Below, piece by piece: positions 28,540-64,000 of a DNA stretch of 64,000 nucleotides. The stretch spans positions 80,028 to 144,027 of the forward strand of contig CACMHQ010000002.1 of the NCBI GenBank assembly GCA_902613615.1, read 5' to 3'. A program made the translations under genes and the position numbers. A model generated the notes under the pieces. The model was not told where the DNA came from. It made no database searches and was given only the letters and a program-made list of their open reading frames with translations. This DNA is from an uncultured Candidatus Actinomarina sp. Its GTDB lineage: Bacteria > Actinomycetota > Acidimicrobiia > Actinomarinales > Actinomarinaceae. Each line of letters opens with the position of its first letter. The first letter of the stretch is position 1.

Positions 28540-28946
28540 TGAAAGAAAATTTAGATATATCAATTGAAGATTATTTTCAAAAAGTCGAAGAGCTGAAAAA
28601 TGATGGATATGAAATGATGGTCGATTTAACTGCTATTGATTGGTTCAGAAAAAAAGAACCTAGGTTTGAAGTAGTTGTAAACTTTCTCTCCGTTTCAAAA
28701 AATAAAAGAATCTCTATCAAAGTCAAATTGAATGATGAGTTAACAATTCCTTCAATCACAAGTCTTTATCCAAGTGCAAATTTTTATGAAAGAGAAGTAT
28801 TTGATATGTTTGGAATTAATTTTGAAAATCATCCTGATTTAACAAGAATTCTCATGCCAGATGATTGGGTTGGACACCCTTTAAGAAAAGATTATGGGAC
28901 AGGAAGAATTCCAGTTCAATTCAAAAATGCACCAAAGGTTGATTAA
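28539..28946 (+). CDS. nuoC: NADH-quinone oxidoreductase subunit C (short form, 135 aa)
   Basis: [40 protein letters not shown]. Confidence 0.88.
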
Positions 28947-35630: not shown

Positions 35631-35637
35631 GAAAATT

Positions 35638-36252: not shown

Positions 36253-36253
36253 T

Positions 36254-36781
36254 GTGACAGATTTACTGCTATTTGCGATTCCTGGATTGTTTATAATTCT
36301 AGGAGCACTCATAGTAATTTTTGCCAGAAATCCAGTTCATAATGCAATGGGACTAGTGCTAACACTTACATCGCTAGCAATTTTATATATCTCTCTTAAT
36401 GCAACTTTCGTTGCTATGGTTCAAATGCTAGTTTATGCAGGCGCTGTAATGACATTATTTTTGTTTGTCATAATGATGATTGGTGTTGACAAACCAGAAC
36501 AAACTAAAGAGGAAATAAAAGGACAAAAATTATTAATATCTGGAACTTTAATTTTGTTAGTCTCGGTTATTGTCTTTATTGGTTTAGAAAATGGTTTAGA
36601 TTGGAATTTGTTACTTCCTCAATCTCAAAATACATTAGAAGGCACACCGTCACGTATAGCATCAGCAATGTTTACGTCGTGGGTCTTTCCCTTTGAAGTT
36701 ATATCAATACTTCTGATCGTTGCTACAACTGCAGCATTAGCTTTAGCTTATGAGTTTAGAAAAAGAGAGACTAATGATTGA
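36254..36781 (+). CDS. nuoJ: NADH-quinone oxidoreductase subunit J
   Basis: GTG start right after the nuoI stop. 5-TM ND6-like protein. Confidence 0.85.
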
Positions 36782-37082
36782 AGTAACCTCTGATTGGTAC
36801 CTAACTCTATCAGCCATACTTTTTTCAATTGGCTTCCTCGGTATTATGATTCGTAAAAATGCATTGATTATGTTTATGTGTATTGAGCTTATGCTTAATG
36901 CTGTTAATTTGACATTTATCACAGCTTCAAACCATTTGGGATTAGTTGATGGTCAGATTGCTGTCTTTTTTGTACTAGTCGTTGCTGCTGCCGAAGTTGT
37001 AGTTGGTCTAGCAATAATTGTTTCAATATTTAAAAAACAAGAATCAGCGTCTGTAGACATGTTAAGTTCTTCGAAGGGATAA
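36774..37082 (+). CDS. nuoK: NADH-quinone oxidoreductase subunit K
   Basis: ND4L-like 3-TM protein ([23 protein letters not shown]..., E residues in TM2/3). Probable start is the ATG at 36774 (ATGATTGA overlap); the longest ORF starts at 36750. Confidence 0.85.
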
Positions 37083-37084
37083 GT

Positions 37085-38974: not shown

Positions 38975-40461
38975 CAAGTTTGATTTATAGCTTTATATTG
39001 CTTCCAGTAATTAATTCAATATTAGTTTTTCTTATTCCAGATAGAAGGAAAGAACTCTTCAGGCCTTTAACAGTTTATTTAAGCTTGATCCCATTAGGTC
39101 TCTGTTTGTATATGTTTGTAAACCAAAATTTAAAAACAAGCTTTTTAGAAGTTGACTCAACACCTTGGATTACAGCATATGGAATAGATTTGATTATTGG
39201 ATTTTCTGGAATGTCATTTTTATTAATTACATTGAATTGTTTGCTTGTATTATTGTCAATTCTTTCACTAAATCAAGAATATGCAGAAAGTAAAGGATTT
39301 CTTGGATCAATCATGCTCTTACAAGCTGCTGTAAATGGAGTATTCTTGGCAGGTGATTTAGTTTCACTATTCATATTTTTTGAAGCCTTGCTAATTCCCA
39401 TGTATTTCTTAATGGGTATCTGGGGTGGAAGTAATAAAAGATATGCAACAATTAAATTTATTTTATATACAGTCTTTGGTTCAATTTTTATACTCGCTGG
39501 AACAATATATACAGGAGTTTTAAGTTACATTTCATCTGGAAAATTTGCGTTAGATTTTGAATCAATAGCATCTATGTCAATTTCGACCAGCCAGTCAGAA
39601 ATATTATTTTTATTATTCACATTTGGTTTCCTTATAAAAGTACCTTTATTTCCACTTCACACCTGGTTACCAGATGCTCACGTGGAAGCACCAACCGCGG
39701 GCAGTATTTTGTTGGCTGGAGTTCTTTTAAAAGTTGGAGCCTATGGAATATTAAGAGTTTCAATTCCTTTTTTTACAGAAGGATTTCTTAGGTACCAATT
39801 CATAATTGCATTTTTATCTGTTGTAGGGATAATTTACGGTGCAATCGTAGCAATTGTTCAAATAGACATTAAAAAACTGATTGCATATTCCTCAATAAGC
39901 CACATGGGATTTGTAATGCTTGGTATTTCAGCAGGAAGATACTTAAGTCTGGAAGGTGCTGTAATTCAAATGATAAATCACGGTATAACTTCTGGTGCAT
40001 TATTTATGCTTGTTGGATTTTTATATGATCGAAGACACACAAGGAGAATATCAGATTTTGGGGGTTTGAGAAAATCAATGCCTATATATGCATCAATATT
40101 TTTATTTTCCTCATTTGCTTCAATAGGATTACCAGGACTTAATGGATTTGTTGGTGAGTTTATGATTTTAATGGGAAGCTATCCGACTTTTAAAGTTCTG
40201 ACCTCTGTTGCAGCATTTGGTGTTGTCCTTGCAGCAATTTATATGCTTTGGGCTTATCAAAGGATGTTTAATGGACAATTAGATAATGATGAAAATTCTG
40301 TGTTAACAGATCTAAATACAAAAGAACTGGTAGCTGTAGGTCCATTACTTGCTTTAATGTTGTTCATTGGCATATATCCGAGCTTTATAGAAAGCTACGT
40401 CGTTCAAGATGTATCAGTAATTTATGAATCAATTAGCAATCTCTTAGGAGCTTCACAATGA
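38971..40461 (+). CDS. nuoM: NADH-quinone oxidoreductase subunit M
   Basis: ND4-like motif TWLPDAHVEAPTAGSILLAGVLLK. Confidence 0.9.
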   Translation: MTSLIYSFILLPVINSILVFLIPDRRKELFRPLTVYLSLIPLGLCLYMFVNQNLKTSFLEVDSTPWITAYGIDLIIGFSGMSFLLITLNCLLVLLSILSLNQEYAESKGFLGSIMLLQAAVNGVFLAGDLVSLFIFFEALLIPMYFLMGIWGGSNKRYATIKFILYTVFGSIFILAGTIYTGVLSYISSGKFALDFESIASMSISTSQSEILFLLFTFGFLIKVPLFPLHTWLPDAHVEAPTAGSILLAGVLLKVGAYGILRVSIPFFTEGFLRYQFIIAFLSVVGIIYGAIVAIVQIDIKKLIAYSSISHMGFVMLGISAGRYLSLEGAVIQMINHGITSGALFMLVGFLYDRRHTRRISDFGGLRKSMPIYASIFLFSSFASIGLPGLNGFVGEFMILMGSYPTFKVLTSVAAFGVVLAAIYMLWAYQRMFNGQLDNDENSVLTDLNTKELVAVGPLLALMLFIGIYPSFIESYVVQDVSVIYESISNLLGASQ

Positions 40462-41930
40462 GTGAAATTAGTGCAGCAATAGGTTTTAATTTAATTGTAA
40501 TTTCTCCAACCATTGCTTTAGTTGGTACAGCCTTGGTTCTTCTATTTTTTACAATCACTATTGAATCTAATGAAATTGTAAAAAAATCAATTACGTTTAT
40601 GGGAATGCTTATTACTTCTTTTTGTGTATTTTTAAAGTTTGGATTGTTTTTAGAGAATGGAGTAAGTTCATATTTCACTCAAAAAATATTATTAGACGAA
40701 TTTTCTCTGTTTGGTAATGTCTTAATTTCGCTTATTTTATTATTTAATTTTTTACCTATTTGGGACTCATCAAAACAATTAAAAGAAAAAACAACGGAGG
40801 CAATAATTCTCACTCTGATGAGTGCTTCTGGCTTTATGTTAATGGTGGACTCTGAAAATTTAATAATGTTATTTATTGGTTTGGAGATTGGTTCTATTAG
40901 TTTATATGCTCTGGCTGGTCTTAATAGAGGTGACAAGCTTAGTAACGAGGCTTCCCTAAAGTATTTCCTATTAGGATCACTCGCATCTTGTATATTGATT
41001 TATGGTGTCTCTTTAGTCTACGTATCTTTTTCAGTTTTTAGTGTTTACAACTTTGCCTTAGGTATCGCTTATGTTGGACCTGATTCTGTACCACTTACAA
41101 CATCAATTGGTGTTTTACTTATTTTTGTTGGTTTACTATTTAAAATTGCTGCTGCACCTTTTCAATCCTGGGCTCCTGATGTTTATCAAGGTTCACCAAC
41201 GGGATATGTTGGATTTATGTCTTCAATAGCTAAAGTTTCATCATTTATTGTTATTGCAAGACTTTGTTTGGTATCAATAAACTTTATTATCGAAGATTTC
41301 AATACCTTCTTTTTAATAGTTATTATTTCTTCTGCTCTCATTGGTTCTTTATTTGCATCTATACAAGAAGATTTAAAAAGGCTTTTAGCTTATAGTGGTG
41401 TAGTCCAGTCTGGATTTATTTTATCTGGAATTGTATCAGGTATAAATGGAACAAGCGCATCTATGTTTTATCTATTTACTTATATACTCCAATTAATCGG
41501 AATATTTATGATTTTTTCAATTATAAATGGAAAACTATCATCAGAATTTAACATTCAAAGTATTCAAGGATTATTTATAAATAATCGTTTTCTTGCCACT
41601 TCATTTTGTGTATTTATGTTTGGTTTAGCCGGAATTCCTCTAACAAGCGGATTCGTGTCGAAATTTATTTTGTTAACAAACTTATGGGCTTATGAAAAAT
41701 ATCTCCTTGTTTCAATTCTTTTATTGTCAACAGTTGCAGGATTTTATTTTTACTTGAGACCAATTTGGATAGCAACTATTGAAAAGACAGAAGCACCTAT
41801 AGAGACATTGAAATTAAAAAAATCAGAATATTTTGTAATTACAACTTTAGCGACACTGACTATATTTTTTGGCCTTGTTCCTAGCTCATTGATAAATATT
41901 TCAAGATGGATAGTACAGAGTTATCTATGA
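40458..41930 (+). CDS. nuoN: NADH-quinone oxidoreductase subunit N
   Basis: ND2-like motif SWAPDVYQGSPTGYVGFMSS. Last gene of operon 1. Confidence 0.9.
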   Translation: MSEISAAIGFNLIVISPTIALVGTALVLLFFTITIESNEIVKKSITFMGMLITSFCVFLKFGLFLENGVSSYFTQKILLDEFSLFGNVLISLILLFNFLPIWDSSKQLKEKTTEAIILTLMSASGFMLMVDSENLIMLFIGLEIGSISLYALAGLNRGDKLSNEASLKYFLLGSLASCILIYGVSLVYVSFSVFSVYNFALGIAYVGPDSVPLTTSIGVLLIFVGLLFKIAAAPFQSWAPDVYQGSPTGYVGFMSSIAKVSSFIVIARLCLVSINFIIEDFNTFFLIVIISSALIGSLFASIQEDLKRLLAYSGVVQSGFILSGIVSGINGTSASMFYLFTYILQLIGIFMIFSIINGKLSSEFNIQSIQGLFINNRFLATSFCVFMFGLAGIPLTSGFVSKFILLTNLWAYEKYLLVSILLLSTVAGFYFYLRPIWIATIEKTEAPIETLKLKKSEYFVITTLATLTIFFGLVPSSLINISRWIVQSYL

Positions 41931-51352: not shown

Positions 51353-52177
51353 GTGTCAAAGGGGGGAAATTTGATATCTGAAAAAATCCGAAAATTAAGG
51401 CGTTTTAATATCATTATGGGCTTTATGCACCTTGTCCAAGGATCAGCATTATTTTGGTTAGGAACTGTAGTAAATTCTGATTTTGTAGTCCCAATAACTC
51501 TTACACAATTGGTTGGAGAGGGCAGTCCAAATGATCCATCATCATTCGCTTTAGTACCAAAATTAGAAATATGGAGAGAAGTAACAAACTTTGGACCTGC
51601 TGTTGCAACCTTCTTGTTAGCATCCGCAGTTGCACATTTTTTGATATCAGGTCCTTTTTACAATAAATACCAAGAAGACCTTGGAAAAGGAATCAATAAA
51701 GTTCGTTGGATTGAATACTCTATAAGTGCTTCTGTCATGATAGTTTTAATTGCCTTACTAGTTGGAATTTATGATATCTGGGCATTACTTGGTATATTTT
51801 TTATGAATGCTGCAATGTGTTGGTTTGGGTGGATGATGGAAGTCAATAATCAATATACTGAAAAAGTCGACTGGACAAGTTACATTATGGGTTGTCTTGT
51901 AGGTGTTGCACCATGGATTTTCATATTTATTAATTTAATTGGGGATGGTGTTGCAACAGATTCAAACCCACAAGGTGTACCTCAGTTTGTTGTCTGGATT
52001 TTTGTAAGTATATTTATATTCTTTAACACTTTTTCAATAAACATGGTTCTCCAATATAAAGGTGTAGGCAAATGGAAAGATTATCTTTACGGTGAGAGGG
52101 CATATATATGGCTTAGCTTATTAGCAAAGACTGCTCTTGCCTGGCAAGTCTTCTTTGGGACTTACCAACCAAACTAA
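51353..52177 (+). CDS. heliorhodopsin
   Basis: 7-TM protein with strong identity by eye to heliorhodopsin 48C12: RWIEYSISASVMIVLIA versus RWVEYSLSSSVMIVLIA, and YKGVGKWKDYLYGERAYIWLSLLAKTALAWQVFFGT versus YKGKGKWSNYLRGERAYIVLSLVAKSALAWQIFSGT. The Schiff-base Lys is retained in LLAKTALAW and the counterion Glu in RWIEYS. Confidence 0.9.
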   Translation: MSKGGNLISEKIRKLRRFNIIMGFMHLVQGSALFWLGTVVNSDFVVPITLTQLVGEGSPNDPSSFALVPKLEIWREVTNFGPAVATFLLASAVAHFLISGPFYNKYQEDLGKGINKVRWIEYSISASVMIVLIALLVGIYDIWALLGIFFMNAAMCWFGWMMEVNNQYTEKVDWTSYIMGCLVGVAPWIFIFINLIGDGVATDSNPQGVPQFVVWIFVSIFIFFNTFSINMVLQYKGVGKWKDYLYGERAYIWLSLLAKTALAWQVFFGTYQPN

Positions 52178-52251: not shown

Positions 52252-53337
52252 TTAATTTAATATTTCAATCAAAGGTATAGAGACCTCTGTCTTAGAAATT
52301 CCTCCGTGATAGCCTTTTAAGTTTGCACTTAGATGATTTGGAAAAATTATGTTTCCATCATCAAGAAGAAAAATTTGCTCTGGATAAAAATTCTCTATAT
52401 GTTCATTAGTAGGTGTACCTAATAAAGAGATTATTTCTTCTTTTTCTAAAAAATACCCTGGAACGTTCTTGAATACTTTTTCAATTTTTTCAACCTCTCC
52501 ATTTATATACACTGCTCTTTGATCGCCATAAATTTTTACAGATTCATCATATTCAAGTCTAAATTTGTTTTGGTCTTCAATATTAACCACTCCATGGTCA
52601 GCAGTTATACACGTATATCTATTTGAATCTATTTTTATCATTCTTGATAAAAATTCTGAAAAGATATTTACTTCATTTTGCCATTCGTCACTATTTGTTC
52701 CATATACGTGTGCTGCAACATCAATCACTGGATAATATATGTAATTAAAGTGATTATCTAATATTTCGGGTAAAGATAAAATATTTTCAAGTTCATTTAA
52801 ATTTTCATAGCCTATTTCATTCGCACCCATATATATATGATCCGATAGAGGGCTACCAATCAAATTTTTTGGTTGAATAACATTGAAACCAATTTTATTT
52901 TGACTCAATATATTCCAAATAGTTTTTTGGGAAGAGAAAAAGTCAATATTTTTTAAGTAAGTTTCAGAACCTTTCCAATTTAAGGTATTGATTAATTTAT
53001 TTTCCTTTTTAGCAAAATGAAAATAGCCAATCAAACCATTATCTATTGGTTTGGAAGCAAAATTAATTGAACTTAAGGCAACACTTGTAGAACTGGGAAA
53101 TGTAGAGACTATCTCATCGGTTTGATTATTGGTAAATAAATTATCTAAATTCTGGATATTTTTACTACCTAAGCCATCAACTAAAATAAAGTTTATTTTT
53201 TTGATTGATTGATCGTACTTTTTTAGAACTAATTTTTGGTTAACATTGAATAACTCTTCTGAACAAATGTTATTGATTAATACCTGAACAAGATCTGTTA
53301 AATTTGGAGAATCTAGAAAAAAATTATTTTTATCCAT
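52252..53337 (-). CDS. alkaline-phosphatase-superfamily type I phosphodiesterase / nucleotide pyrophosphatase family protein
   Basis: Metal-site motifs FILVDGLG, STFPSSTSVALSS (nucleophile Thr/Ser region of PF01663), ITADHGVV. No signal peptide. Confidence 0.7.
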   Translation of the reverse strand: MDKNNFFLDSPNLTDLVQVLINNICSEELFNVNQKLVLKKYDQSIKKINFILVDGLGSKNIQNLDNLFTNNQTDEIVSTFPSSTSVALSSINFASKPIDNGLIGYFHFAKKENKLINTLNWKGSETYLKNIDFFSSQKTIWNILSQNKIGFNVIQPKNLIGSPLSDHIYMGANEIGYENLNELENILSLPEILDNHFNYIYYPVIDVAAHVYGTNSDEWQNEVNIFSEFLSRMIKIDSNRYTCITADHGVVNIEDQNKFRLEYDESVKIYGDQRAVYINGEVEKIEKVFKNVPGYFLEKEEIISLLGTPTNEHIENFYPEQIFLLDDGNIIFPNHLSANLKGYHGGISKTEVSIPLIEILN

Positions 53338-53413: not shown

Positions 53414-53779
53414 ATGATTTCTTATTTTCAGGATTACGTTACTGTTGGGGCGATGATAGGTCTCGGACTTGTCTTGTTTCTAGTTTTTATTTCTGTGTCT
53501 GCATTACTAAGCCCCAAAAAACCAACTCCAGAAAAAGTTAAAACATACGAGTGCGGAGTAGATCCAGTAGGTGGTGGATGGAGCCAAACTTATGTTAGAT
53601 ACTATATATTTGGTTTATTATTTGTAATTTTTGACGTTGAGGCAGTATTTATTTTTCCATGGGCACTAAATCTTGAAAATCTTGGATACTTTGGCTTGGT
53701 TGAAATGTTTATCTTTATTTTTATTCTCTTACTTGGTTTGATATATGCCATTAGAAAGGATGTCCTCAAATGGGAGTAA
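53414..53779 (+). CDS. nuoA: complex I-like subunit A (operon 2)
   Basis: [11 protein letters not shown]...[23 protein letters not shown]. Confidence 0.88.
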
Positions 53780-54267
53780 TTGAAAAGTTTGGTATCCCCA
53801 AGCCTATTTCTAAAATATTGAATTGGGCAAGAGCATATGATATGTGGTATTTCCAATTTGGTTTAGCATGCTGTGCCATTGAAGTTATGGCAGCAAGTGG
53901 ACCAAGACATGATTTTATGAGATTAGGTATAATTCCACTTCCTGCATCGCCAAGGCAAGCTGACCTAATGGTTGTAGCAGGTACTGTGACCGATAAAATG
54001 GCCCCGGCAGTTAAAAGATTATATGATCAAATGCCGGAACCAAAGTATGTAATTTCAATGGGTTCATGTTCAAACAGTGGGGGACCGTATTGGGATTCTT
54101 ACTCTGTTACAAAAGGAGTAGATCAATTAATTCCAGTTGACGTTTATGTTCCCGGATGTCCTCCAAGACCGGAAGCTTTGCAAGAAGGAATAGTTTTATT
54201 ACAGAAAAAAATAAAAGGTGAAGATATGAAAGAAAAGTGGAGAGAAAAAGACATTGAACCAGTCTGA
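53770..54267 (+). CDS. nuoB: complex I-like subunit B (operon 2)
   Basis: All four N2 ligands present: [30 protein letters not shown]. Confidence 0.9.
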
Positions 54268-54814
54268 TCAAAACGAATTCGTAAATTCAATTCAAAGTAA
54301 ATTTCAAAATTCATCAGTTGAATTTGATACATTAAAAATTGAAGTAGATTCTCAGTCTTGGGTTGATACGCATAAAACATTGAAATCAGAATTTGATTTA
54401 AAATTTTTTAATTGGCTATCTGCTGTTGACTGGGATAACGATGTAAAAATTGGTGACGCACCAAAAGAACCAGTAACCCCAAGTTTTGAAATAATAAGTT
54501 GTTTATCAAAAACAAATTCTGACGACTTAGTTATATCATCTACAAAGATTTCAAAAGAGGATCCGCAGATTGATTCATTAGTTGAAGTTTTTGGTGGAGC
54601 GAACTGGCATGAAAGAGAAGCTTATGAAATGTTTGGTATAAATTTCTTGAACCATCCAAATTTAAAGAAACTTTATCTTCCTGATGCTTATGAAGGGAAT
54701 CCTCTACTTAAATCATTTGAGTTAATAAGTAGAGAAGTTAAACCTTGGCCAGGTGAAGTTGATGTAGAAGGTATGCCAGAAGATAACATCGTGGTCTCAG
54801 AAGAGGGTAGCTAA
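54254..54814 (+). CDS. nuoC: complex I-like subunit C (operon 2)
   Basis: [31 protein letters not shown]. Length 186 aa. Confidence 0.88.
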
Positions 54815-56010
54815 TGGCTCAAACAATGGATCCAAACAATATGCCAATTTTATCTGAAGCATCAGTTTCTGTTGAAATAGAAACAGAAGATATGACTTTA
54901 AATATTGGTCCTCAACATCCATCGACTCACGGTGTTTTGAGGTTAGTAGCTAAAATTAATGGAGAAAAAATATCCAGTGTTGAACCTGTACTTGGATATA
55001 TGCACAGAGGATATGAGAAACTTGCAGAGGTCAGAACTTATCCACAAGTAACAACATTAGTAAATAGAATTGACTGGGTTTCAGGATTTGCGAATGAGAT
55101 TCCATTTATCGCTGGTGCTGAAAAATTAATGGAAATCGAAGTACCTGAAAGAGCACAATACATCAGACTGATTTTGACAGAAATGGCAAGAATAAGCTCC
55201 CACTTTGTTTTTAATGGTGCTTTCCCCCTCGAAATTGGTGCACTAACACCTATATTTTTAGCTATGGAAGATCGAGAAAGAGTTCTTGATTTACTTGAAT
55301 CAGTTACCGGTGGAAGATTTCATCCAAACTTTAATCGAATTGGTGGGGTAAAACCTGCCGCAGGTGCTGGGCCAACAACAAAAAAAGACATACAGGATTT
55401 ACCGGCAGGATTTTATCACGATACCAAAGTTGCAATGCAAAAAGTTCTTGAAGCTGTTGATAGATTTGAAGATTTAATAGGCGGAAATGAAGTATTTCAA
55501 CTTAGAACAAAGAATGTTGGTGTATTACCAAAAGAAGTTGCCGAAGATTATGGAGTATCTGGTCCAATATTGAGAGCATCAGGTGTTGAGTTTGATTTGA
55601 GAAAACAATCAAACTACTTACCATATGACAAATTTGATTTCGAAATACCAATAGGTGAAAATGGTGACTGTTTTGATAGATGGTCTGTAAGAACATCCGA
55701 AATGAGAGAATCTGCAAAAATTATTTTACAAGCAATTGAAGACATGCCTTCTGGACCAATCCAGGCAAAGGTACCAAAAGTTATAAAAGTTCCTAAAGGG
55801 CAAACATATGTAAGAGCAGAAAACCCAAAGGGTGAAATGGGATATTATATTATTTCTGAAGGTGGTTTAGGACCTTATAGGTTAAAAATAAGAACAGCTT
55901 CATTTAGTAACATTTCAATTTTGCCAATCATGCTTGAGGGGGCCTTGCTTCCTGACTTGATAGCAATAATGGGTAGTTTAGATTTTGTTCTTGGAGATGT
56001 AGACAGATGA
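54814..56010 (+). CDS. nuoD: complex I-like subunit D (operon 2)
   Basis: NIGPQHPSTHGVLRL, RASGVEFDLRK, C-terminal DFVLGDVDR. There are no NiFe-hydrogenase CxxC motifs, so this is a genuine complex I type. Confidence 0.9.
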   Translation: MAQTMDPNNMPILSEASVSVEIETEDMTLNIGPQHPSTHGVLRLVAKINGEKISSVEPVLGYMHRGYEKLAEVRTYPQVTTLVNRIDWVSGFANEIPFIAGAEKLMEIEVPERAQYIRLILTEMARISSHFVFNGAFPLEIGALTPIFLAMEDRERVLDLLESVTGGRFHPNFNRIGGVKPAAGAGPTTKKDIQDLPAGFYHDTKVAMQKVLEAVDRFEDLIGGNEVFQLRTKNVGVLPKEVAEDYGVSGPILRASGVEFDLRKQSNYLPYDKFDFEIPIGENGDCFDRWSVRTSEMRESAKIILQAIEDMPSGPIQAKVPKVIKVPKGQTYVRAENPKGEMGYYIISEGGLGPYRLKIRTASFSNISILPIMLEGALLPDLIAIMGSLDFVLGDVDR

Positions 56011-56987
56011 GTTTTAGTACCGAGTTACTTATCAAAGTTTTGGTTGTTTTAGCTACAGCTCCAGTTATGGCCTTAGGACTTACATTGCTAGAGGTTAAAG
56101 GTTCTGCCTGGATGCAAAGGCGACCAGGTCCTCTTCATGTTGGTTTAAGAGGTTTTATATTTCCACTAGCAACAGCTGCAAAATATTTACAAAAGGAAAC
56201 AATCATTCCAAATGATGTTGACGAACCCGTATTTAAGTGGGCGCCAGCTTGGGTTATAGCTGCTGTAGTAGGCCTATTCACAATTATTCCATTAAGCCCT
56301 ACATTAATTGTTCGTGATCTGGAACTGGGTGTTTTCTTTTTACTTGCAATTAGCTCCATTTCCACCATTGGAGTCCTTACCGCTGGATGGTCTTCTGCAA
56401 ACAAATTTTCTCTAATGGGTGGCTTAAGAGCAGCAGGTCAACTTATTGCTTATGAATTGCCACTTATTTTATCTGTAGTTGGTGTCGTTATACAAGCTGA
56501 AACAATGTCAACAGTTGGAATAGTTGAAAAACAGATTGAATTTGGTTTTCCTTTTGTAATAGCAGGACAGGGTATTGCTTTTATTATTTTTATGATTGCT
56601 GCAACTGCTGAAATGATGAGAACACCATTTGATATGCCAATTGGCGAATCTGAATTAACCATGGGCTTTTTTACAGAATATTCTGGCATTAGATTTCTTA
56701 TTTTTTATATTTCTGAATATATAAATTTATTTGTAATGTGTGCGATTGCCTCAACTCTTTTTTTGGGGGGTTATCATGTCCCACTTTTACCGACAGAATG
56801 GGTTAATTTTTATGGTCCATTGGTTCTAATTGGAAAGACATTTTTACTAGCATTTATCCTCATTGCTATTAGATGGTCTTTTCCACGATTTAGGGAGGAT
56901 CAACTTCAGACTCTTGCTTGGAAAATCCTTATACCTCTATCTCTTTTGAATATAATGGCTACAGCAATCATGAAAGTTGTTTTTTAA
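56007..56987 (+). CDS. nuoH: complex I-like subunit H (operon 2)
   Basis: ND1 motifs (WMQRRPGP..., TEYSGIRFLIFYISEYINLF). It directly follows nuoD; there is no nuoEFG. Confidence 0.9.
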   Translation: MSFSTELLIKVLVVLATAPVMALGLTLLEVKGSAWMQRRPGPLHVGLRGFIFPLATAAKYLQKETIIPNDVDEPVFKWAPAWVIAAVVGLFTIIPLSPTLIVRDLELGVFFLLAISSISTIGVLTAGWSSANKFSLMGGLRAAGQLIAYELPLILSVVGVVIQAETMSTVGIVEKQIEFGFPFVIAGQGIAFIIFMIAATAEMMRTPFDMPIGESELTMGFFTEYSGIRFLIFYISEYINLFVMCAIASTLFLGGYHVPLLPTEWVNFYGPLVLIGKTFLLAFILIAIRWSFPRFREDQLQTLAWKILIPLSLLNIMATAIMKVVF

Positions 56988-57472
56988 TGCAAAAATTCAA
57001 ACCAAAGATTCCTGGATTTTTAACTGGACTAAAAATTGTTATTGGCAATATGTTTAAAACCCTTCTTCCTTTTTTTGAAAATCCTAACGTTAATTATCCA
57101 TTTGAAAAAGAAATACTCGCACCGAGAACTAGGGGTGTCATTGCTTTAGATTCTGAAGCATGTACAAGTTGCATGTTGTGTGCAAGATCTTGTCCCGACT
57201 GGTGTATTTACATAGAGGGTCACAAAGAACTACAACCTCCCTCAAAACCAGGAGGACGTCAGAGAAGCAGGGCAGTACTCGATCGGTTTGATATTGATTA
57301 TGCACTTTGTATGTATTGTGGGATATGCGTTGAAGTATGTCCATTTGATGCATTGTTCTGGTCACCGGAATACGAATATTCAGAATTTTCTATGGGTGAT
57401 ATGCTCCATGATAAAGACAGGCTTGACGAATGGTTAAAGACAGTTCCTGAAGGTCCAGGTTTAGAGAGCTAA
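56987..57472 (+). CDS. nuoI: complex I-like subunit I (operon 2)
   Basis: CTSCMLCARSCP and CMYCGICVEVCP. The start is set at the ATG overlapping the nuoH stop (TAATG); the longest ORF starts at 56918. Confidence 0.88.
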   Translation: MQKFKPKIPGFLTGLKIVIGNMFKTLLPFFENPNVNYPFEKEILAPRTRGVIALDSEACTSCMLCARSCPDWCIYIEGHKELQPPSKPGGRQRSRAVLDRFDIDYALCMYCGICVEVCPFDALFWSPEYEYSEFSMGDMLHDKDRLDEWLKTVPEGPGLES

Positions 57473-57990
57473 TGGAAGCAATAGACATATTTTCATATTT
57501 TCTTTTGCTGTTGCTATTACTTAGTGGAGTAAAAGTTGTTACCACTTCAAATGTTATCCACGCTGCAATATTTTTAGTATTTACTCTTGCTACTACTGCT
57601 GTTTTATTCATTTTATTATCTGCTGAATTTGTAGCTTTAGTCCTAATACTTGTATATATAGGAGCAGTTATTGTTCTATTTTTATTTGGTGTGATGATCA
57701 CTAGAGCTCCTTTAGGTCCAAACGCTGAACTAGATAATGATCAAAATAAATTAATGGCTGCTGTAATATCACTATCAATTTTTGGAATATTTACATATAT
57801 TCTTCTACAAACATTTGACTCAACAGTTGTTATTAGTGAAGGAACATCTACTAAATTATTAGGAGAAATTTTGTTGAGTAGATTTGTCTTTCCTTTTGAG
57901 CTAGTTTCATTTGTTTTGTTGGGAGCTTTAATTGGAGGCATTACACTAGCAAGAAAAGATAATGCATTAATGGACGAAGACCAAATATGA
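57472..57990 (+). CDS. nuoJ: complex I-like subunit J (operon 2)
   Basis: ND6-like 5-TM protein. Confidence 0.85.
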   Translation: MEAIDIFSYFLLLLLLLSGVKVVTTSNVIHAAIFLVFTLATTAVLFILLSAEFVALVLILVYIGAVIVLFLFGVMITRAPLGPNAELDNDQNKLMAAVISLSIFGIFTYILLQTFDSTVVISEGTSTKLLGEILLSRFVFPFELVSFVLLGALIGGITLARKDNALMDEDQI

Positions 57991-58292
57991 GCATTCAACC
58001 ATTGCTAATTGCAGCAGCAGCATTGTTCTCGATAGGCATTTATGGAATTCTTGTCCGAAGAAACGCAGTAATGGTTTTACTTTCAATTGAGCTGATTCTC
58101 AATTCAGTAAATATAAATTTTGTTGCATTCAATGCTATGCTTTCAGATGTTTTTTTAAATGGCCAGATTTTTTCAATATTTATTATCACAATTGCAGCAG
58201 CAGAAGTTGGTATTGGATTAGCTATTGTTCTAATGCTTTTCAGAAATCGAGAAACAGCCAATATTAATGAATTTGATTTAATGAAATGGTGA
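57987..58292 (+). CDS. nuoK: complex I-like subunit K (operon 2)
   Basis: ND4L-like, 101 aa (LLSIELILNSVNINFVAF). Confidence 0.88.
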   Translation: MSIQPLLIAAAALFSIGIYGILVRRNAVMVLLSIELILNSVNINFVAFNAMLSDVFLNGQIFSIFIITIAAAEVGIGLAIVLMLFRNRETANINEFDLMKW

Positions 58293-60304
58293 ATCAGAAT
58301 TTTATAAATTTACTCGCTGAGGGTAAGCCAGAATATACTGATGGTGGTGTACTCGCTGAATTTACTTGGTTGATCGTTGTACTTCCTTTTTTAGCTGCAA
58401 TTTTGATTACTTTTCTTGGAAAATATCTCCCATTACAAGGTGCAGAACTAGCTTTAGGAACAGTTTTATTCATATTTTCATATAGCGCAGCTTTGCTTTA
58501 TGAGCATGCGACAAAAGGAATCGCCAATGAATTTTTTATCAACGTAGGAAGTATTGGTTCTTATGATCTTGAGTTTGGCTGGGTCGTAGATGGATTGTCT
58601 ATTATGATGTACTTCGTAGTTGGTACTGTTTCATCTTTAGTTTTTATATATGCAACAAATTATATGCAAGGTGAAATAAGATATACTTTCTTTTTCACAT
58701 CACTCACATTATTTGCGGGGAGTATGTTAGTTTTAGTCTCTTCTCCAACACTTTTGCAATTGTTGATTGGTTGGGAATTAGTTGGAGTTTGTTCTTATCT
58801 ACTAATTGGCCATTACTGGGAAAAAAAGGAAAATTCTTCCGCAGCGATGAAAGCATTTATAACTAATAAAATTGCTGATGTTGGGTTAATGATTGGAATC
58901 ATTGTTCTTGCTTTATCAACAAAAACCTTGAGAATTTCTGAGATATTGTATCAATCAACTCATGATTATGTTGATATCAAAACCGTAGCATATTTGGGCG
59001 GAGTACTTCTTTTCATAGGTGCAATGGGAAAGAGTGCCCAATTTCCACTTCATGTATGGTTACCTGATGCAATGGCAGGACCAACACCAGTATCTGCTTT
59101 AATGCATGCAGCAACCATGGTAACCGCGGGTGTCTATCTTCTTGGCCGCATGTTTCCTTTCTACCAAGGAATGGCCTCACAAGCCCTAGATATAGTTCTT
59201 TTATTTGGAGTAATAACACTTCTTGGAGCAGGATTAGTTGCCGTAGTTCAGGATGATCTCAAAAAAGTTCTTGCATATTCAACAGTAAGTCAACTTGGTT
59301 ATATGGTTACAGCAATGGGTTCAGGTGCATACACTGCAGGTCTTTTTCATCTATGGACTCATGCATTTTTTAAAGCTTTATTATTTTTAGGTGCTGGCTC
59401 GGTAATTCATGCAGTGCACACAAATAACATGTCTGAAATGGGTGGACTAAGGAAAGAAATGCCCAGAACATTTTCAACTTTCATTATTGGAACGGTAGCC
59501 CTTGCTGGACTTCCTCCATTAGCTGGATTTTTCTCAAAAGATGAAATACTCGCATCACTGAATCACGAAGGGCATAATTTATATTTTATTATTTCAGTTC
59601 TTGGAGCCTTTATTACTGCGTTTTATATGACAAGAGCAGTTCTTTTAACATTTTTTGGTGATTATCGGGGCGATGGACACCCTCACGAATCTGACAAAAT
59701 GATGACAATTCCTTTGATAATATTATCAGGCTTTGCCATTGTTGCAGGATGGGCAAACATACCTGGTGTTTATACAGGATTTACAAAATGGGTTACAACC
59801 AGGAAAAATTATATTGTAGAATATCATCCTGAATCATTTGATTTGGTTGCTATGTTCAGTGGTCTTACATCTGGACTTTTGGGTATTGGACTTGCCTACT
59901 ACGTCTATCAAATGTCAGGAAATGCAACTGACGGCGATGAAAAAATTAAAATAAAACCAATATGGAATTTATTGGAAAATAAATACTACTTAGATTTTTT
60001 CTACTTCAAATTCATAATTGATCCTGTAAAAATAACTTTTGCTAAATTTGTTGACTCATTTAATTCAAATGTCCTTGATCGGTTTGTTAATGGTGTTGGG
60101 ACAACTGCTTCAAAAGCAGGAGGAATTGTATATACAAATCTTGACCAAGGAGGTATTGACAAGGTACTTAATTTATCCTCAACAGGTACAGACACTATTG
60201 GTAGTAAAGTCAAATTAATTCAAACTGGTAAAACTCAACAGTACTTAATGTATTTTTTAATAGGAGTGATAGTTATTAGCTTAATAATTTTGTTAGTGTT
60301 ATGA
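58286..60304 (+). CDS. nuoL: complex I-like subunit L (operon 2)
   Basis: 672 aa with VWLPDAMAGPTPVSALMHAATMVTAGV and a long C-terminal helix. Confidence 0.9.
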   Translation: MVNQNFINLLAEGKPEYTDGGVLAEFTWLIVVLPFLAAILITFLGKYLPLQGAELALGTVLFIFSYSAALLYEHATKGIANEFFINVGSIGSYDLEFGWVVDGLSIMMYFVVGTVSSLVFIYATNYMQGEIRYTFFFTSLTLFAGSMLVLVSSPTLLQLLIGWELVGVCSYLLIGHYWEKKENSSAAMKAFITNKIADVGLMIGIIVLALSTKTLRISEILYQSTHDYVDIKTVAYLGGVLLFIGAMGKSAQFPLHVWLPDAMAGPTPVSALMHAATMVTAGVYLLGRMFPFYQGMASQALDIVLLFGVITLLGAGLVAVVQDDLKKVLAYSTVSQLGYMVTAMGSGAYTAGLFHLWTHAFFKALLFLGAGSVIHAVHTNNMSEMGGLRKEMPRTFSTFIIGTVALAGLPPLAGFFSKDEILASLNHEGHNLYFIISVLGAFITAFYMTRAVLLTFFGDYRGDGHPHESDKMMTIPLIILSGFAIVAGWANIPGVYTGFTKWVTTRKNYIVEYHPESFDLVAMFSGLTSGLLGIGLAYYVYQMSGNATDGDEKIKIKPIWNLLENKYYLDFFYFKFIIDPVKITFAKFVDSFNSNVLDRFVNGVGTTASKAGGIVYTNLDQGGIDKVLNLSSTGTDTIGSKVKLIQTGKTQQYLMYFLIGVIVISLIILLVL

Positions 60305-60320
60305 GAGAGAGTGGTAAATA

Positions 60321-61898
60321 TTGAGTAGTTTTTCTTTTTTGGAGAGTGGATTAGGTTTAACCGTAGTAGTTTTTCTTCCGCTTGTATCCGCAATATTTAT
60401 ATTCTTAATACCTAAGAAACAAGAGATGCTAATTAAATTAGTAACTCTTGGATCTGCACTACTTACTTTTGGAGTAAGTTTAATTGTTGCCTTACAATTT
60501 GATTTTAATAATGCTGGTGACCTTCAGCTTGGTACTAAGGTCTCATGGATTAGTAGTATTAATTCAAATTATGAAATAGGCATAGACGGTATTTCTTTAC
60601 CTTTATTACTTTTATCTACTTTCATTTCTGTATTAGCAATTATTTATTCTTTTGAACATTTACCTGAACCAAAAAATGCAAAAGGAATGATGTCTTTGAT
60701 TTTAATTTTAGAAACTGGAATGAATGGTACATTTGTGGCATTAGATCTAATTTTATTTTTTGTGTTCTTTGAACTTGTTTTACTACCAATGTATTTCATG
60801 ATTGGTATTTGGGGAGATAAAACTGTCAGAAGTGTTTCTGGACTTAAGAATGATATTGAAACAAGACTTTATGCAAGTATTAAGTTTTTTGTATTTACTT
60901 TATTTGGATCTGCTTTCATGCTTTTAGGATTCCTAGGTTTATATTTCAGGGGAAATAGAACATTTAGTATTCCCGAACTAATTGAGCTTGGCTCTAGTGG
61001 AGCATTTACAGGTACATTTGCAACGTTAGTTTTTGCTGTTTTATTTTTGGGCTTTGCAGTAAAAGTACCAATGTGGCCACTACATACATGGTTGCCTGAT
61101 GCACACACAGCTGCACCAACTGTTGGATCTGTTTTATTAGCTGCGATTTTATTAAAACTTGGATCCTATGGTTTTGTAAGAATTGCTTTACCTATTCTTC
61201 CAGAACAGGCTGTTGCTTGGGCTCCAGCTATTGCAGTGCTATCAGCAATTGGAATAATATACGGCTCTCTTGCTTGCTTGGCACAAACAGACCTTAAAAG
61301 ATTGATTGCATTTTCTTCAGTAGGACATATGGGCTTTGTAATGCTTGGGATATCTTCACTCACCTCAATAGGTATTAATGCTGCAATGATTGGAATGGTT
61401 GCCCACGGAATAATTACTGGTTTATTGTTTTTTGTTTCTGGTTCTATGGCACATACTTATCACACCAGAGACATGGGAAGACTAGGTGGAAATATGAAAC
61501 TTCTTCCAAAGACTGGAGCCATTTTAGCTTTTACAGCTATGGCGTCACTTGGCTTACCCGGATTGGCAGGATTTTGGGGAGAATTTATGGCTCTCCTTGG
61601 AGCATATAATCCATTACCTGGTTTAAATATTACAATTTTTAGATCCTCCATGGTTGCAGGTGCAATTGGAACTGTTTTAACAGCAGGTTATTTATTATGG
61701 ATGCTTCAAAGAGTTAATCTTGGTGAACCTAAAGAAGAATGGTTAGATAAAGAGCTTCATGATGCGGATAATTATGAGCTTGTTGCTTGGATACCTTTAG
61801 TAATACTTACTGTTCTAATCGGAGTATTTCCAAAGCTTATATTTGGAGCAACTAATGATGCAGTTATTGCTTTGGTATCTAAAGCGTTCGGAGGCTAA
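60321..61898 (+). CDS. nuoM: complex I-like subunit M (operon 2)
   Basis: TWLPDAHTAAPTVGSVLLAAILLK. Confidence 0.9.
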   Translation: MSSFSFLESGLGLTVVVFLPLVSAIFIFLIPKKQEMLIKLVTLGSALLTFGVSLIVALQFDFNNAGDLQLGTKVSWISSINSNYEIGIDGISLPLLLLSTFISVLAIIYSFEHLPEPKNAKGMMSLILILETGMNGTFVALDLILFFVFFELVLLPMYFMIGIWGDKTVRSVSGLKNDIETRLYASIKFFVFTLFGSAFMLLGFLGLYFRGNRTFSIPELIELGSSGAFTGTFATLVFAVLFLGFAVKVPMWPLHTWLPDAHTAAPTVGSVLLAAILLKLGSYGFVRIALPILPEQAVAWAPAIAVLSAIGIIYGSLACLAQTDLKRLIAFSSVGHMGFVMLGISSLTSIGINAAMIGMVAHGIITGLLFFVSGSMAHTYHTRDMGRLGGNMKLLPKTGAILAFTAMASLGLPGLAGFWGEFMALLGAYNPLPGLNITIFRSSMVAGAIGTVLTAGYLLWMLQRVNLGEPKEEWLDKELHDADNYELVAWIPLVILTVLIGVFPKLIFGATNDAVIALVSKAFGG

Positions 61899-62011
61899 AA
61901 ATTAATATTAATTATTTCGCTATATCAAGTGAATTAATAGTAATCCTAACGATTGTCGCTGCTATAACATTAGATATACTTTTACCAAGAAAATTTAAAT
62001 TCATCATTGCA

Positions 62012-63382
62012 ATGGTTTCAATTCTTGGATCGCTATTTGCATTCCTTCCAATTATTTTTCAATTTGCCAACTATACAACTCCAGAAATTATGTTTGAGGG
62101 AAGTTATGTAATTGATAAATTTTCCTTGATTCTAAAAGGCCTATTTATATTGGTTACGTATCTGACATTTTTATTGTCCGTAAATTTTGTAGAAAGTGAT
62201 GAATATTACCAGGGAGAATATTATTTTCTTCTGTTAAGTTCTCTCCTTGGAGCATTAGTAGTAACCTCTTCAAGAGATTTACTAACAATGTTTATTGGAA
62301 TTGAATTAGCTTCAACGCCAATGTTTCTATTATCTGGCTGGAAAAAAGGCGATCAAAAATCAAATGAAGGTTCAATTAAATTCTTTTTATTGGGAGTACT
62401 ATCAGCATCTTTAATTCTTTATGGTTTTTCACTACTTTATGGAGTAACTGGAAAGTTAGTTTTTTCAGATATAGCTAATATTTTAATTCAGCAAGATCTT
62501 GCCCAATCACCTGTTGCTTTATTAAGCGCAATACTTATTTTGGCGGGTATAGGCTTCAAGATATCGATAGTTCCATTTCACTCTTGGGCACCTGATACTT
62601 ATGAAGGTGCACCTTTACCAGTAACGGCTTATCTATCTGTTAGCTCCAAAGCGACTGGCTTTGTTGCATTAATTATTTTGATGTCAAAAATATTTTTTGA
62701 ATCTGGAGATGGATTGGGGATAATACTTGTATTCATTTCTGGAATAACAATGTTTGTTGGTAATTTATCAGCTTTACAACAAACAAATCCAGTAAGACTT
62801 CTAGCATATTCATCGATTGCACAGGCAGGGTTTATTATTGCCCCGATAGCTGTTGCAAACATAACAAATAATTTTGAAGATGGTGTCTATGCAAGTGTTA
62901 CGTATCTAATTATTTATGCATTTATGAATATAGGTGCATTTTTAGTGATTAATTTGTTACAAAGAAATATTGACTCAGAAAACATGTATGACTGGGGAGG
63001 TCTTGCAAAAGAAACACCATTAGCAGGAATCTTTGCAGTAATATTTTTCTTCTCTCTTGCAGGGATTCCACCTCTTGGAGGATGGTTCGCAAAATTTGTA
63101 GTTTTCAGAAGCTTACTAAGCACAGGTGAAATTTTTGGATTATCTCTAGCTATAGTTGGTGCTATTAATGCTGTAATAGGCTTGGTGTATTATTCAAGAA
63201 TTTCAAAAATTATATGGATGGATAGTCCAAAAGAAGATGTTCAAAAGACCGAAAATTCGATCATCCCAAGCCCACTAAAAGTTGTTGGTTTTGTAAGTTT
63301 AATTTTGACAATTGTATCTGGAATTTTTCCAGGCATATTCAGCAATCTAGGTGAAGCTTCATCAATATTTTTTAATAGCTAA
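62012..63382 (+). CDS. nuoN: complex I-like subunit N (operon 2)
   Basis: ND2-like motif SWAPDTYEGAPLPVTAYLS. Coordinates are for the canonical ATG ORF. The conserved first TM helix continues in-frame upstream to about 61901 (a possible ATT start behind a GGAGG SD). Confidence 0.85.
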   Translation: MVSILGSLFAFLPIIFQFANYTTPEIMFEGSYVIDKFSLILKGLFILVTYLTFLLSVNFVESDEYYQGEYYFLLLSSLLGALVVTSSRDLLTMFIGIELASTPMFLLSGWKKGDQKSNEGSIKFFLLGVLSASLILYGFSLLYGVTGKLVFSDIANILIQQDLAQSPVALLSAILILAGIGFKISIVPFHSWAPDTYEGAPLPVTAYLSVSSKATGFVALIILMSKIFFESGDGLGIILVFISGITMFVGNLSALQQTNPVRLLAYSSIAQAGFIIAPIAVANITNNFEDGVYASVTYLIIYAFMNIGAFLVINLLQRNIDSENMYDWGGLAKETPLAGIFAVIFFFSLAGIPPLGGWFAKFVVFRSLLSTGEIFGLSLAIVGAINAVIGLVYYSRISKIIWMDSPKEDVQKTENSIIPSPLKVVGFVSLILTIVSGIFPGIFSNLGEASSIFFNS

Positions 63383-63386
63383 TTAA

Positions 63387-64000
63387 GTGGTAGAAAAAAA
63401 ATTTATTGATTACCTCAAAAATAAATACAGTAAAAACTATTTATACTTTGATGAATTCATGCAGGAATGTCTTTATTCTGATTATGGATTTTTTGCAAAG
63501 GGCGAAGTCCGCTCCAGTAAATCTGGTGATTTTTTAACCTCACCAGAAGTATCTAATTATTTTGGATTATTTATTTCAAACTGGATTAAAGAAAATAGAA
63601 TCAATAGCGATTCAAATATACTTGAAGTTGGAGCAGGAACAGGTTCACTTGCGAATCAGGTGTCAAAGTATCTTGAAAAAGAAATCTATGTTTCCGAAAT
63701 TTCGTTAAATGCCTTAAAAGCACTTAAAAGTAAAAATTTTTTGGTTGATAGCAATTTAGACAACTATGGTTCATCTCAGATAAAAACTATTTATATGAAT
63801 GAAGTGTTAGATAATATACCTTGTTCTGTCGGTATAGAAGTAGACAATACTTGGTATGAAAAAACAATTGAATTTACAAAAGATAATGAACTTAGATATG
63901 GAAAAGTAGAAATGCGTGAATCAAATCTTAAATGGATTAAAAAATATAATTGTTTAGATAACCAAGATAATGAGCTTGAAATTCAACACAATACAGAACA
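63387..64000 (+). CDS. MidA/NDUFAF7-family (DUF185) class I SAM-dependent methyltransferase, 5' part; the gene runs off the window
   Basis: GTG start 4 nt after the nuoN-2 stop. LYFDEFMQECLYSDYGFFAKG and GDFLTSPEVSNYFGLFISNWI match the MidA signature (FM...LY.P..GYY; DFxT(A/S)PE(I/L)SxxFGE...W). The SAM motif is LEVGAGTGSL. Confidence 0.75.
   Translation, partial: MVEKKFIDYLKNKYSKNYLYFDEFMQECLYSDYGFFAKGEVRSSKSGDFLTSPEVSNYFGLFISNWIKENRINSDSNILEVGAGTGSLANQVSKYLEKEIYVSEISLNALKALKSKNFLVDSNLDNYGSSQIKTIYMNEVLDNIPCSVGIEVDNTWYEKTIEFTKDNELRYGKVEMRESNLKWIKKYNCLDNQDNELEIQHNTE

Follow-up and report, generated by a model that had tools for sequence, protein, structure and literature searches.

The 64,000-nucleotide (nt) window analysed here, a stretch of contig CACMHQ010000002.1 from an uncultured Candidatus Actinomarina species, carries two operons for respiratory complex I: a canonical 14-gene nuoA-N (operon 1) and, downstream of it, a second set of 11 genes (operon 2, or nuo2) without the nuoE, F and G genes of the NADH-oxidising N-module. 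Our best explanation, held with moderate confidence, is that the product of operon 2, Nuo2, is a vertically inherited complex I paralog with a ferredoxin-type electron donor, a methylated arginine (Arg65) in its NuoD2 subunit and a modified quinone pocket. Actinomarina are among the most abundant marine photoheterotrophs, and the ~10 kb kept for Nuo2 in a genome of ~1.1 Mb argues for an important role; which donor feeds the complex I enzymes that lack the N-module is, besides, a long-standing open question.

Genes were assigned from an open reading frame (ORF) listing together with Pfam and NCBIfam scans of the window, which has a G+C content of ~33%. Operon 2 spans 53414-63382 on the + strand, where 11 contiguous genes, each with a Pfam match far above the gathering score, follow one another in the order nuoA, B, C, D, H, I, J, K, L, M, N; the original prediction had placed the same 11 subunits here, with nuoD leading straight to nuoH, and the ORFs and Pfam matches bear this out. 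Eleven core genes in one cluster is the architecture of the 11-subunit enzymes (NUO11), and the genes are as follows (lengths in amino acids, aa):

nuoA2, 53414..53779, + strand: 121 aa; PF00507 (E 6.5e-36); equivalents of E. coli D79 and E81 kept
nuoB2, 53770..54267, + strand: 165 aa; carrier of cluster N2; PF01058; NF005012 at 230 bits (cut-off 116)
nuoC2, 54254..54814, + strand: 186 aa, TTG start; PF00329 (E 9.9e-30)
nuoD2, 54814..56010, + strand: 398 aa; short-type NuoD; PF00346; NF004739 at 417 bits (cut-off 360)
nuoH2, 56007..56987, + strand: 326 aa; PF00146 (E 1.1e-95); E-channel residues kept
nuoI2, 56987..57472, + strand: 161 aa from the ATG at 56987; carrier of clusters N6a and N6b; Fer4 families
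nuoJ2, 57472..57990, + strand: 172 aa; PF00499; equivalent of Tyr59 kept
nuoK2, 57987..58292, + strand: 101 aa; PF00420; NF004320 at 102 bits (cut-off 57); equivalents of E36 and E72 kept
nuoL2, 58286..60304, + strand: 672 aa; antiporter-like; NF005141 at 607 bits (cut-off 556)
nuoM2, 60321..61898, + strand: 525 aa, TTG start; TIGR01972 at 533 bits (cut-off 264)
nuoN2, 61901..63382, + strand: PF00361; 493 aa from an ATT at 61901, 456 aa from the first canonical start, an ATG at 62012

Junctions range from -14 to +16 nt, that between nuoM2 and nuoN2 excepted, and nuoD2 and nuoH2 overlap by 4 nt. NuoC2 is 34% identical to the NuoC of operon 1 and ~50 aa longer. The nuoI2 ORF reaches back to a TTG at 56918, and 161 aa is also the called length of the gene in three contigs (L001-L003) whose nuoD2 product is ~99% identical to that of the window (few residues differ) and from which we read the flanks past the window end. 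The true start of nuoN2 is probably not the ATG at 62012 but the ATT at 61901, 2 nt past the nuoM2 stop: the ATT is preceded at 6 nt by a GGAGG, the peptide encoded upstream of the ATG is kept in six relatives (L001, L005-L009) that have no canonical start codon there, the ATG itself is not conserved among relatives, and the ATG form matches TIGR01770 (353 bits, cut-off 333) only from model position 43. The ATT start adds 37 residues, likely the first transmembrane helix, and makes the apparent 113-nt gap before nuoN2 a probable artefact. A promoter scan was uninformative (37 promoter-like sites against 58 expected), and an Rfam scan of the window returned no RNA element in operon 2.

When aligned with E. 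coli NuoA, B, H, J, K, L, M and N, operon 2 conserves every proton-translocation residue checked, together with the four N2 cysteines of NuoB2 (a tandem CC plus two more ligands). NuoH2 keeps the equivalents of E157, D213, E218, E220 and E228, NuoL2 those of E144, K229, H334, H338, K342, K399 and D400, NuoM2 E144, K234, K265 and E407, and NuoN2 E133, K217, K247 and K395; the NuoL family model covers most of NuoL2, its C-terminal part included. NuoI2 has eight cysteines in two CxxCxxCxxxCP motifs, the N6a and N6b ligands, and the earlier statement that the N2 ligands of NuoB2 and both NuoI ferredoxin motifs are intact was correct. The residues expected of a NUO11 enzyme (N2 and N6a/N6b ligands, antiporter-like and E-channel Lys, Glu and His) are all present.

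Judged by its relatives, operon 2 is an old, vertically inherited actinobacterial paralog, the Nuo2 ortholog, and not a recent import. Its proteins are 32-52% identical to those of operon 1, and the only DNA repeats that the two operons share are short conserved coding motifs, which argues against recent gene conversion between them. G+C is 35.0% in operon 2 and 33.5% in operon 1, with 22% G+C at third codon positions (GC3) in both. The best solved relative of NuoD1, the operon 1 protein, is Mycobacterium smegmatis NuoD, while NuoD2 finds Thermus thermophilus Nqo4, with M. smegmatis far lower. Hundreds of NuoD2 relatives at 81-99% identity come from marine metagenomes and belong, where named, to Candidatus Actinomarina, Acidimicrobiaceae or the OCS155 cluster; outside the Actinomarina group, no full-length relative above 48% identity was found among 1.84 billion cluster representatives. 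Scanning 185,579 species, each by one genome, gave at least 600 matches, and the best 80, analysed as loci, are all from Actinomycetota, with NuoD2 identities of 83-99% in Actinomarinales, 54-76% in other Acidimicrobiia and 44-52% in Nitriliruptoraceae, Nocardioidaceae, Streptomyces, Actinomadura, Streptosporangium and Nonomuraea. The 11-gene operon is likewise found in Acidimicrobiia and in some other Actinomycetota. Identity falling with taxonomy and a native codon composition point to vertical inheritance rather than recent transfer. We therefore reject horizontal acquisition, which the original prediction had raised for checking by GC and codon usage: GC3 is equal and identity tracks taxonomy.

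The tree agrees with this history. In a neighbour-joining analysis of 133 NuoD sequences with 100 bootstraps (distance-based, NuoD only), NuoD2 and the Streptomyces-type nuoD2 products form one clade (99/100) with an Acidimicrobiia subclade (98/100), and NuoD1 falls outside it, with T. thermophilus Nqo4 and the long-type NuoD representatives (a grouping recovered in 24/100). Operon 2 is therefore an actinobacterial Nuo2 in each of its defining features, lying beside a complete nuoA-N, lacking the N-module and grouping by NuoD2 with Streptomyces-type nuoD2; it belongs not to the archaeal Fpo or cyanobacterial NDH-1 family, which it had been said to resemble, but to an Actinomycetota-specific clade. 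Among loci L042-L083 are nuoD2 genes that have no nuo neighbour within 10 kb and so stand alone (L075 in Streptomyces, L058 in Actinomadura, L079 in Streptosporangium), whose products all carry the His, Arg, Trp and Glu discussed below. These orphan loci fit the Streptomyces literature and would imply assembly from dispersed genes with a borrowed NuoC.

The quinone site was described earlier as intact from its HGVLRL motif, and THGVLRL is indeed retained in NuoD2, but the site is not canonical. Compared with the His38, Tyr87 and Asp139 of the canonical pocket (T. thermophilus numbering), NuoD2 keeps the histidine (His39) and carries Trp88 in place of the tyrosine and Glu140 in place of the aspartate, whereas NuoD1 has the canonical Tyr and Asp. 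All 84 NuoD sequences of the clade, a set partly ascertained by a scan in which one of two patterns demanded Trp, have the His, Arg and Trp, and the fourth position is Glu in 73 and Gln in 11. In NuoH2, the loop between transmembrane helices 5 and 6, which lines the same chamber as the NuoD2 quinone site, reads PFDMPIGESEL against a canonical PFDLxEAExEL, with E. coli E216 replaced by Ile, and PFDMP[IV][AG][ED]SE[LI] is found in 30/30 operon-2-type NuoH sequences. NuoD2 also lacks a ~24-aa segment found in Nqo4, NuoD1 and cyanobacterial NdhH and has a 14-aa insert at 181-194; it aligns in one stretch with the NuoD homologues of Fpo and Mbh and with short NuoD (PRK12322), while its alignment with long NuoD is split in two. 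NuoD2 is thus of the short NuoD type, to which the NuoD proteins of N-module-less enzymes such as Fpo also belong.

The same Tyr87Trp change in piericidin-producing Streptomyces was called rare and tied to self-resistance by Degli Esposti (PMC4758237), and an engineered Tyr-to-Trp change is summarised there as costing most decylubiquinone activity while conferring inhibitor resistance. A Tyr-to-Trp change that is invariant across the clade contradicts its reading as a rare piericidin-resistance trait of producer strains, and indicates instead that a widespread paralog normally carries Trp, with marine bacteria of 1.1-Mb genome size among its holders. Trp is also seen outside the actinobacterial clade, for example in archaeal fused NuoCD proteins (P0127 and P0166, from Methanofastidiosia and Methanonatronarchaeales); these branch apart from it, so Trp arose there independently. 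The remodelled pocket could alter quinone position or specificity, the direction of the reaction, or inhibitor sensitivity.

The third distinguishing trait is a linked methyltransferase gene, which follows nuoN2 with no terminator detected between the two by a terminator scan:

MidA/NDUFAF7-family S-adenosylmethionine-dependent methyltransferase, 63387..64000, + strand: 4 nt after nuoN2, cut by the window end; PF02636

The full-length ortholog (L001 18574-19608) has 344 aa, and family membership is seen in both the window fragment (27.9 bits) and this ortholog (82.9 bits; PF02636 cut-off 23.3); similarity to solved MidA-type proteins (PDB 1zkd, and 5ztz, a NDUFAF7 homolog) is weak (E 7e-7 to 1e-4). 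A PF02636 gene stands directly after nuoN2 in all eight Actinomarinales loci that reach that far (4-6 nt) and in six other Acidimicrobiia (8-182 nt), and beside the orphan nuoD2, convergent or in tandem, in 10 further Actinomycetota genomes (4-2785 nt); six of these methyltransferase neighbours were confirmed as PF02636 by Pfam. Linkage that survives rearrangement, here in three arrangements, is good evidence of a functional tie. In eukaryotes, the family member NDUFAF7 acts on NDUFS2, the NuoD homolog, where it dimethylates the arginine of the HRGxE motif beside cluster N2 (PMC3829151; motif defined in PMC8042128). Mammals, yeasts and Paracoccus carry this methylation, E. coli does not, and in T. 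thermophilus the position is Thr (PMC3829151, PMC8042128). NuoD2 has the target arginine (HRGYE, Arg65), whereas NuoD1 reads HTGME with a Thermus-like Thr, and by analogy we infer that the linked enzyme methylates Arg65 of NuoD2. No report of a MidA-nuo2 linkage was found in the literature searched, and its recurrence offers a bacterial system for asking why the arginine next to N2 is methylated.

How might such an enzyme work? We hypothesize that a Q-module (NuoB2, C2, D2 and I2) sits on a full pumping membrane arm (NuoA2, H2, J2, K2, L2, M2 and N2), that electrons would enter at the two [4Fe-4S] clusters of NuoI2 and pass to N2 in NuoB2, and that N2 would hand them to a quinone of the membrane (presumably menaquinone) bound in the modified pocket. 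Quinone reduction would then drive proton export through the three antiporter-like subunits and the E-channel, and the methyltransferase would dimethylate Arg65, the HRGxE arginine beside N2. The donor would most likely be a soluble low-potential carrier that docks on NuoI2, with reduced ferredoxin as first choice, in which case Nuo2 would be a ferredoxin:quinone oxidoreductase running in parallel to the NADH-dependent enzyme of operon 1. We rank ferredoxin first, shared NuoEFG second and F420H2 third. Ferredoxin comes first because it is the assumed or shown donor of relatives lacking the N-module (11-subunit enzymes elsewhere are thought to accept electrons from ferredoxin-type donors; PMC11238625, PMC3144371) and because Actinomarina lack the E1 component of 2-oxoglutarate dehydrogenase (preprint 10.64898/2026.04.03.716425), their sister order using a ferredoxin-dependent 2-oxoglutarate oxidoreductase instead (PMC12008989). 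By this analogy, an aerobe that oxidises 2-oxoglutarate with ferredoxin would have to re-oxidise the ferredoxin.

Several points weigh against this proposal. Pfam annotation of the window gives no ferredoxin, flavodoxin, F420 or hydrogenase-type donor gene, and nuo2 has no linked gene for ferredoxin, flavodoxin, FpoF or an NdhS-like protein, either in the window or in the 80 related loci, as the original prediction, which saw no donor module, had noted for the window. Trp88 stands where canonical complex I has its proton donor to quinone, and quinone reduction at the usual site is an assumption because Trp-for-Tyr mutants lose most decylubiquinone activity. Beside the partly ascertained signature count stands an unbiased alignment of 152 sequences (149 representatives from the cluster-representative search, one further relative and the two NuoD copies of the window) in which Trp is the minority state (32/152) and Tyr the common one (100/152). 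The case for methylation of NuoD2 by the MidA homolog draws only on gene linkage and eukaryotic precedent, and the tandem arrangement of the two operons, together with the absent nuoC2 of Streptomyces, argues for possible hybrid assemblies with operon 1 subunits.

This last point leads to the competitor that survives best, in which the NuoE, F and G of operon 1 would dock on either Q-module and Nuo2 would be a second NADH:quinone oxidoreductase isozyme, the two differing only in pocket and membrane arm, be it by quinone affinity, by pumping or by resistance to inhibitors; we regard it as unlikely but worth serious attention. The genes concerned lie upstream:

operon 1, canonical nuoA-N, 27668..41930, + strand: Pfam matches for all 14 genes

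A complete 14-gene operon beside operon 2, and with it two full sets of membrane arm and Q-module, had been claimed for this stretch, and both claims hold. Operon 1 includes NuoE (PF01257), NuoF (PF01512, PF10589) and NuoG, the only N-module in the window; its NuoD1 (28946-30304, + strand) has 452 aa, of which the N-terminal ~65 form an acidic extension ahead of the conserved domain. Operon 2 and its flanks have no NuoE, F or G of their own. Such genes just outside the window had been named as what would overturn the earlier picture, and none lies 3' of nuoN2 in L001-L003, where the order is MidA-family methyltransferase, M48 peptidase, rhodanese and PfkB kinase; nor does any NuoE, F or G match lie near nuo2 in the 80 related loci, or within 10 kb in relatives. 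Operon 2 therefore stands as an operon without an N-module, but that its donor cannot be NADH via NuoF, as originally concluded, does not follow, since the operon 1 NuoEFG could be shared. The window has one nuoEFG set and two copies of all else, a configuration that 'could potentially' make two isozymes according to Spero et al. (PMC4453560), and nuo2 sits downstream of the 14-gene operon, 0.09-7.5 kb past its end, in 11 loci that represent several Actinomycetota classes (L013, L021, L026, L033, L035, L036, L038, L041, L045, L050 and L084). In Streptomyces, nuo2 has no nuoC and its nuoD2 lies elsewhere, so that a hybrid with at least NuoC1 seems required (PMC8388888, PMC3765725); because such a complex must borrow one subunit or more (PMC8388888), the exclusion of NADH is not established. 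Against sharing, the subunits that would contact NuoG have diverged between the operons (NuoI2 33%, NuoC2 34% and NuoD2 40% identity), NuoD2 is of the short type seen in the Fpo and Mbh homologues and in PRK12322, and 11-subunit enzymes work in organisms without any NuoEFG (PMC3144371, PMC11238625).

That Nuo2 is instead an F420H2 dehydrogenase, with an input subunit from another part of the genome through which it would oxidise reduced F420 in the manner of archaeal Fpo, strikes us as improbable. Lopez-Perez et al. (2020, PMC7771536) reported F420 biosynthesis genes and F420-dependent oxidoreductases from Ca. Actinomarinales, and for the operon up to 35% identity to Methanosarcina mazei Fpo along with a comparable gene order; such an order, however, is common to all 11-subunit enzymes. 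Neither an FpoF nor an FpoO gene turned up in operon 2, in the rest of the window or, to a distance of 10 kb, in relatives, and FpoF-containing enzymes are confined to Euryarchaeota according to Moparthi and Hagerhall (PMC3144371). Fpo NCBIfam models score below their cut-offs throughout (FpoC 73/220, FpoD 338/600, FpoH 235/475, FpoI 47/180, FpoJ 29/110, FpoK 98/145, FpoL 373/1050), and the general NuoD, NuoB, NuoL and NuoM models outscore them. Apart from the cofactor pathway being there, nothing backs the F420 proposal from the literature, and operon 2 fails the tests specific to Fpo.

A further reading, to which we give a similarly small chance, makes Nuo2 a mechanistically distinct class of complex I, with a pocket tuned for something other than ordinary forward quinone reduction and MidA as its dedicated maturation factor; one possibility would be transfer from menaquinol to ferredoxin driven by the proton-motive force (rhodopsin-powered in Actinomarina), another a non-quinone acceptor. 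Reverse operation in particular, in which the proton-motive force, which the cell's proton-pumping rhodopsin can supply in the light, would push electrons uphill so that quinol reduces ferredoxin or another low-potential acceptor for use in biosynthesis, seems to us less likely still. Complex I chemistry is reversible, which is established knowledge (see e.g. PMC8357420), the organism is a rhodopsin photoheterotroph (PMC7771536), and with Trp substituted for the Tyr that donates a proton, quinone reduction in the forward direction would be disfavoured. The reading is, however, purely inferential, the Trp-type enzyme also occurs in soil Streptomyces and many non-phototrophic Actinomycetota, and the adjacency of a heliorhodopsin gene is confined to Actinomarinales.

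Finally, operon 2 is under strong purifying selection and no relic: between the window and two other Actinomarinales species, all 11 genes have nonsynonymous differences (pN 0.06-0.24) far below synonymous ones (pS 0.66-0.84, saturated). In one related 1.08-Mb contig (ERZ28548087 contig_2990; L002 15508-17086), nuoM2 is split into ORFs of 212 and 331 aa, probably by an assembly frameshift in this long-read assembly; other contigs with the same NuoD2 carry an intact 525-aa nuoM2. That operon 2 is a decaying duplicate without function, as the loss of the canonical quinone-ligand Tyr from NuoD2 and the split nuoM2 could suggest, is next to inconceivable and pseudogene status is rejected, given that the window has no frameshift or stop in the operon, that catalytic and pump residues are all retained, that pN is so far below pS, that the operon is kept across the order in streamlined ~1.1-Mb genomes (PMC7771536) and that Trp is invariant across a phylum-wide clade. 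The original view that the operon looks functional is upheld by its redox and pump residues and by selection on all 11 genes, the quinone site nevertheless being altered.

Around the two operons, the rest of the window holds housekeeping and transport genes by Pfam. In Actinomarina, an 11.5-kb insert separates the operons, with an iron ABC transporter, a DtxR-like repressor, thymidine kinase and heliorhodopsin. The individual features are:

geranylgeranyl reductase family gene, 26311-27600, + strand: directly upstream of operon 1; TIGR02032 at 167 bits (cut-off 159)
heliorhodopsin gene, 51353..52177, + strand: between the operons; PF18761 (E 7e-90); NF038020 at 313 bits (cut-off 100)
phosphodiesterase/PglZ-like gene of the alkaline-phosphatase superfamily, 52252..53337, - strand: divergent from nuoA2; PF01663 (E 8e-10), no NCBIfam match

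The heliorhodopsin gene adjoins nuo2 in all Actinomarinales loci and in none of the other 70 loci, and this adjacency is therefore probably lineage-specific synteny rather than a component of the system. The phosphodiesterase/PglZ-like gene holds the same position in 23 Acidimicrobiia loci (among L001-L029). Neighbour clustering across the 80 loci mostly gave spurious ORFs of high G+C; the recurrent genuine neighbours are MidA and the phosphodiesterase-like gene, joined within Actinomarinales by M48, rhodanese and heliorhodopsin. The geranylgeranyl reductase family gene scores 120 against a cut-off of 700 for the MenJ equivalog model, which leaves a role in menaquinone saturation no more than putative. 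The sole Rfam match in the window is a tRNA at 17158-17229 (+ strand).

The two-operon arrangement itself is already known for the Actinomarina lineage (OCS155). Lopez-Perez et al. (2020, mSystems, PMC7771536) published a Ca. Actinomarinales locus with a complete nuo, an iron-uptake cluster, heliorhodopsin and a second nuo, which they described as 'truncated, missing the subunits EFG' and for which they speculated on F420 use by analogy with Methanosarcina Fpo. Lineage and locus are the same as ours (NuoD2 of the OCS155 single-cell genome, L005, is 99% identical); the phylum-wide Nuo2 clade, the invariant Trp-type quinone-site signature and the recurrent MidA linkage are not in their account and are added here. 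The last of these recalls mitochondrial NDUFS2 and NDUFAF7, likewise an HRGxE-bearing NuoD homolog paired with a PF02636 methyltransferase, with the difference that the bacterial pairing is known here from gene linkage and weak similarity to solved MidA.

Among respiratory enzymes, the original prediction had likened operon 2 to cyanobacterial NDH-1 and archaeal Fpo, and it belongs to neither family: equivalog scores fall far below the cut-offs for both. Cyanobacterial and chloroplast NDH-1 share the 11 homologous core subunits and the lack of NuoEFG, and take electrons from ferredoxin, but no NdhS/NdhV/NdhO-type gene and no conserved small extra ORF family is seen at the operon 2 locus, the NDH-1 models score low (NdhH 354/583, NdhI 57/302, NdhJ 64/175), and NdhH keeps both the Tyr and the ~24-aa segment that NuoD2 lacks. 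Archaeal Fpo resembles operon 2 in its set of 11 core genes, in their order and in its short NuoD-type subunit; FpoF and FpoO, however, are not at operon 2, every Fpo-specific model stays below its cut-off, and FpoD keeps Tyr87 without His38 and Asp139 (PMC4758237), the opposite of the NuoD2 pattern. Similar in layout are the NUO11 enzymes of Bacillota, Bacteroidota, Chlorobi and others (e.g. Desulfitobacterium hafniense), which have the order nuoABCDHIJKLMN, no N-module, a short NuoD and a donor that is unknown or ferredoxin-like, and actinobacteria were listed among the holders of 11-subunit enzymes by Moparthi and Hagerhall (PMC3144371). The Actinomarina copy differs in coexisting with a canonical complex I in an aerobe and in having Trp where most relatives have Tyr, and NuoD2 reaches 452 bits against a cut-off of 522 with the best short-NuoD equivalog, NF008974.

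Another close known system is the nuo2 of Streptomyces, made up of nuoA2, B2 and H2-N2 plus a separate nuoD2, without an N-module and beside a full nuoA-N (PMC3765725, PMC8388888). Both are second sets lacking the N-module, and the orphan nuoD2 products of Streptomyces, Actinomadura and Streptosporangium share the NuoD2 clade and its His, Arg, Trp and Glu; in Streptomyces, however, there is no nuoC2, nuoD2 lies elsewhere and identity is 44-48%, whereas Actinomarina and other Acidimicrobiia keep all 11 genes, nuoC2 and nuoD2 among them, in one operon. No function of Streptomyces nuo2 was found in the literature searched, and as the clade includes these genetically tractable bacteria, the function of Nuo2 can be tested there.

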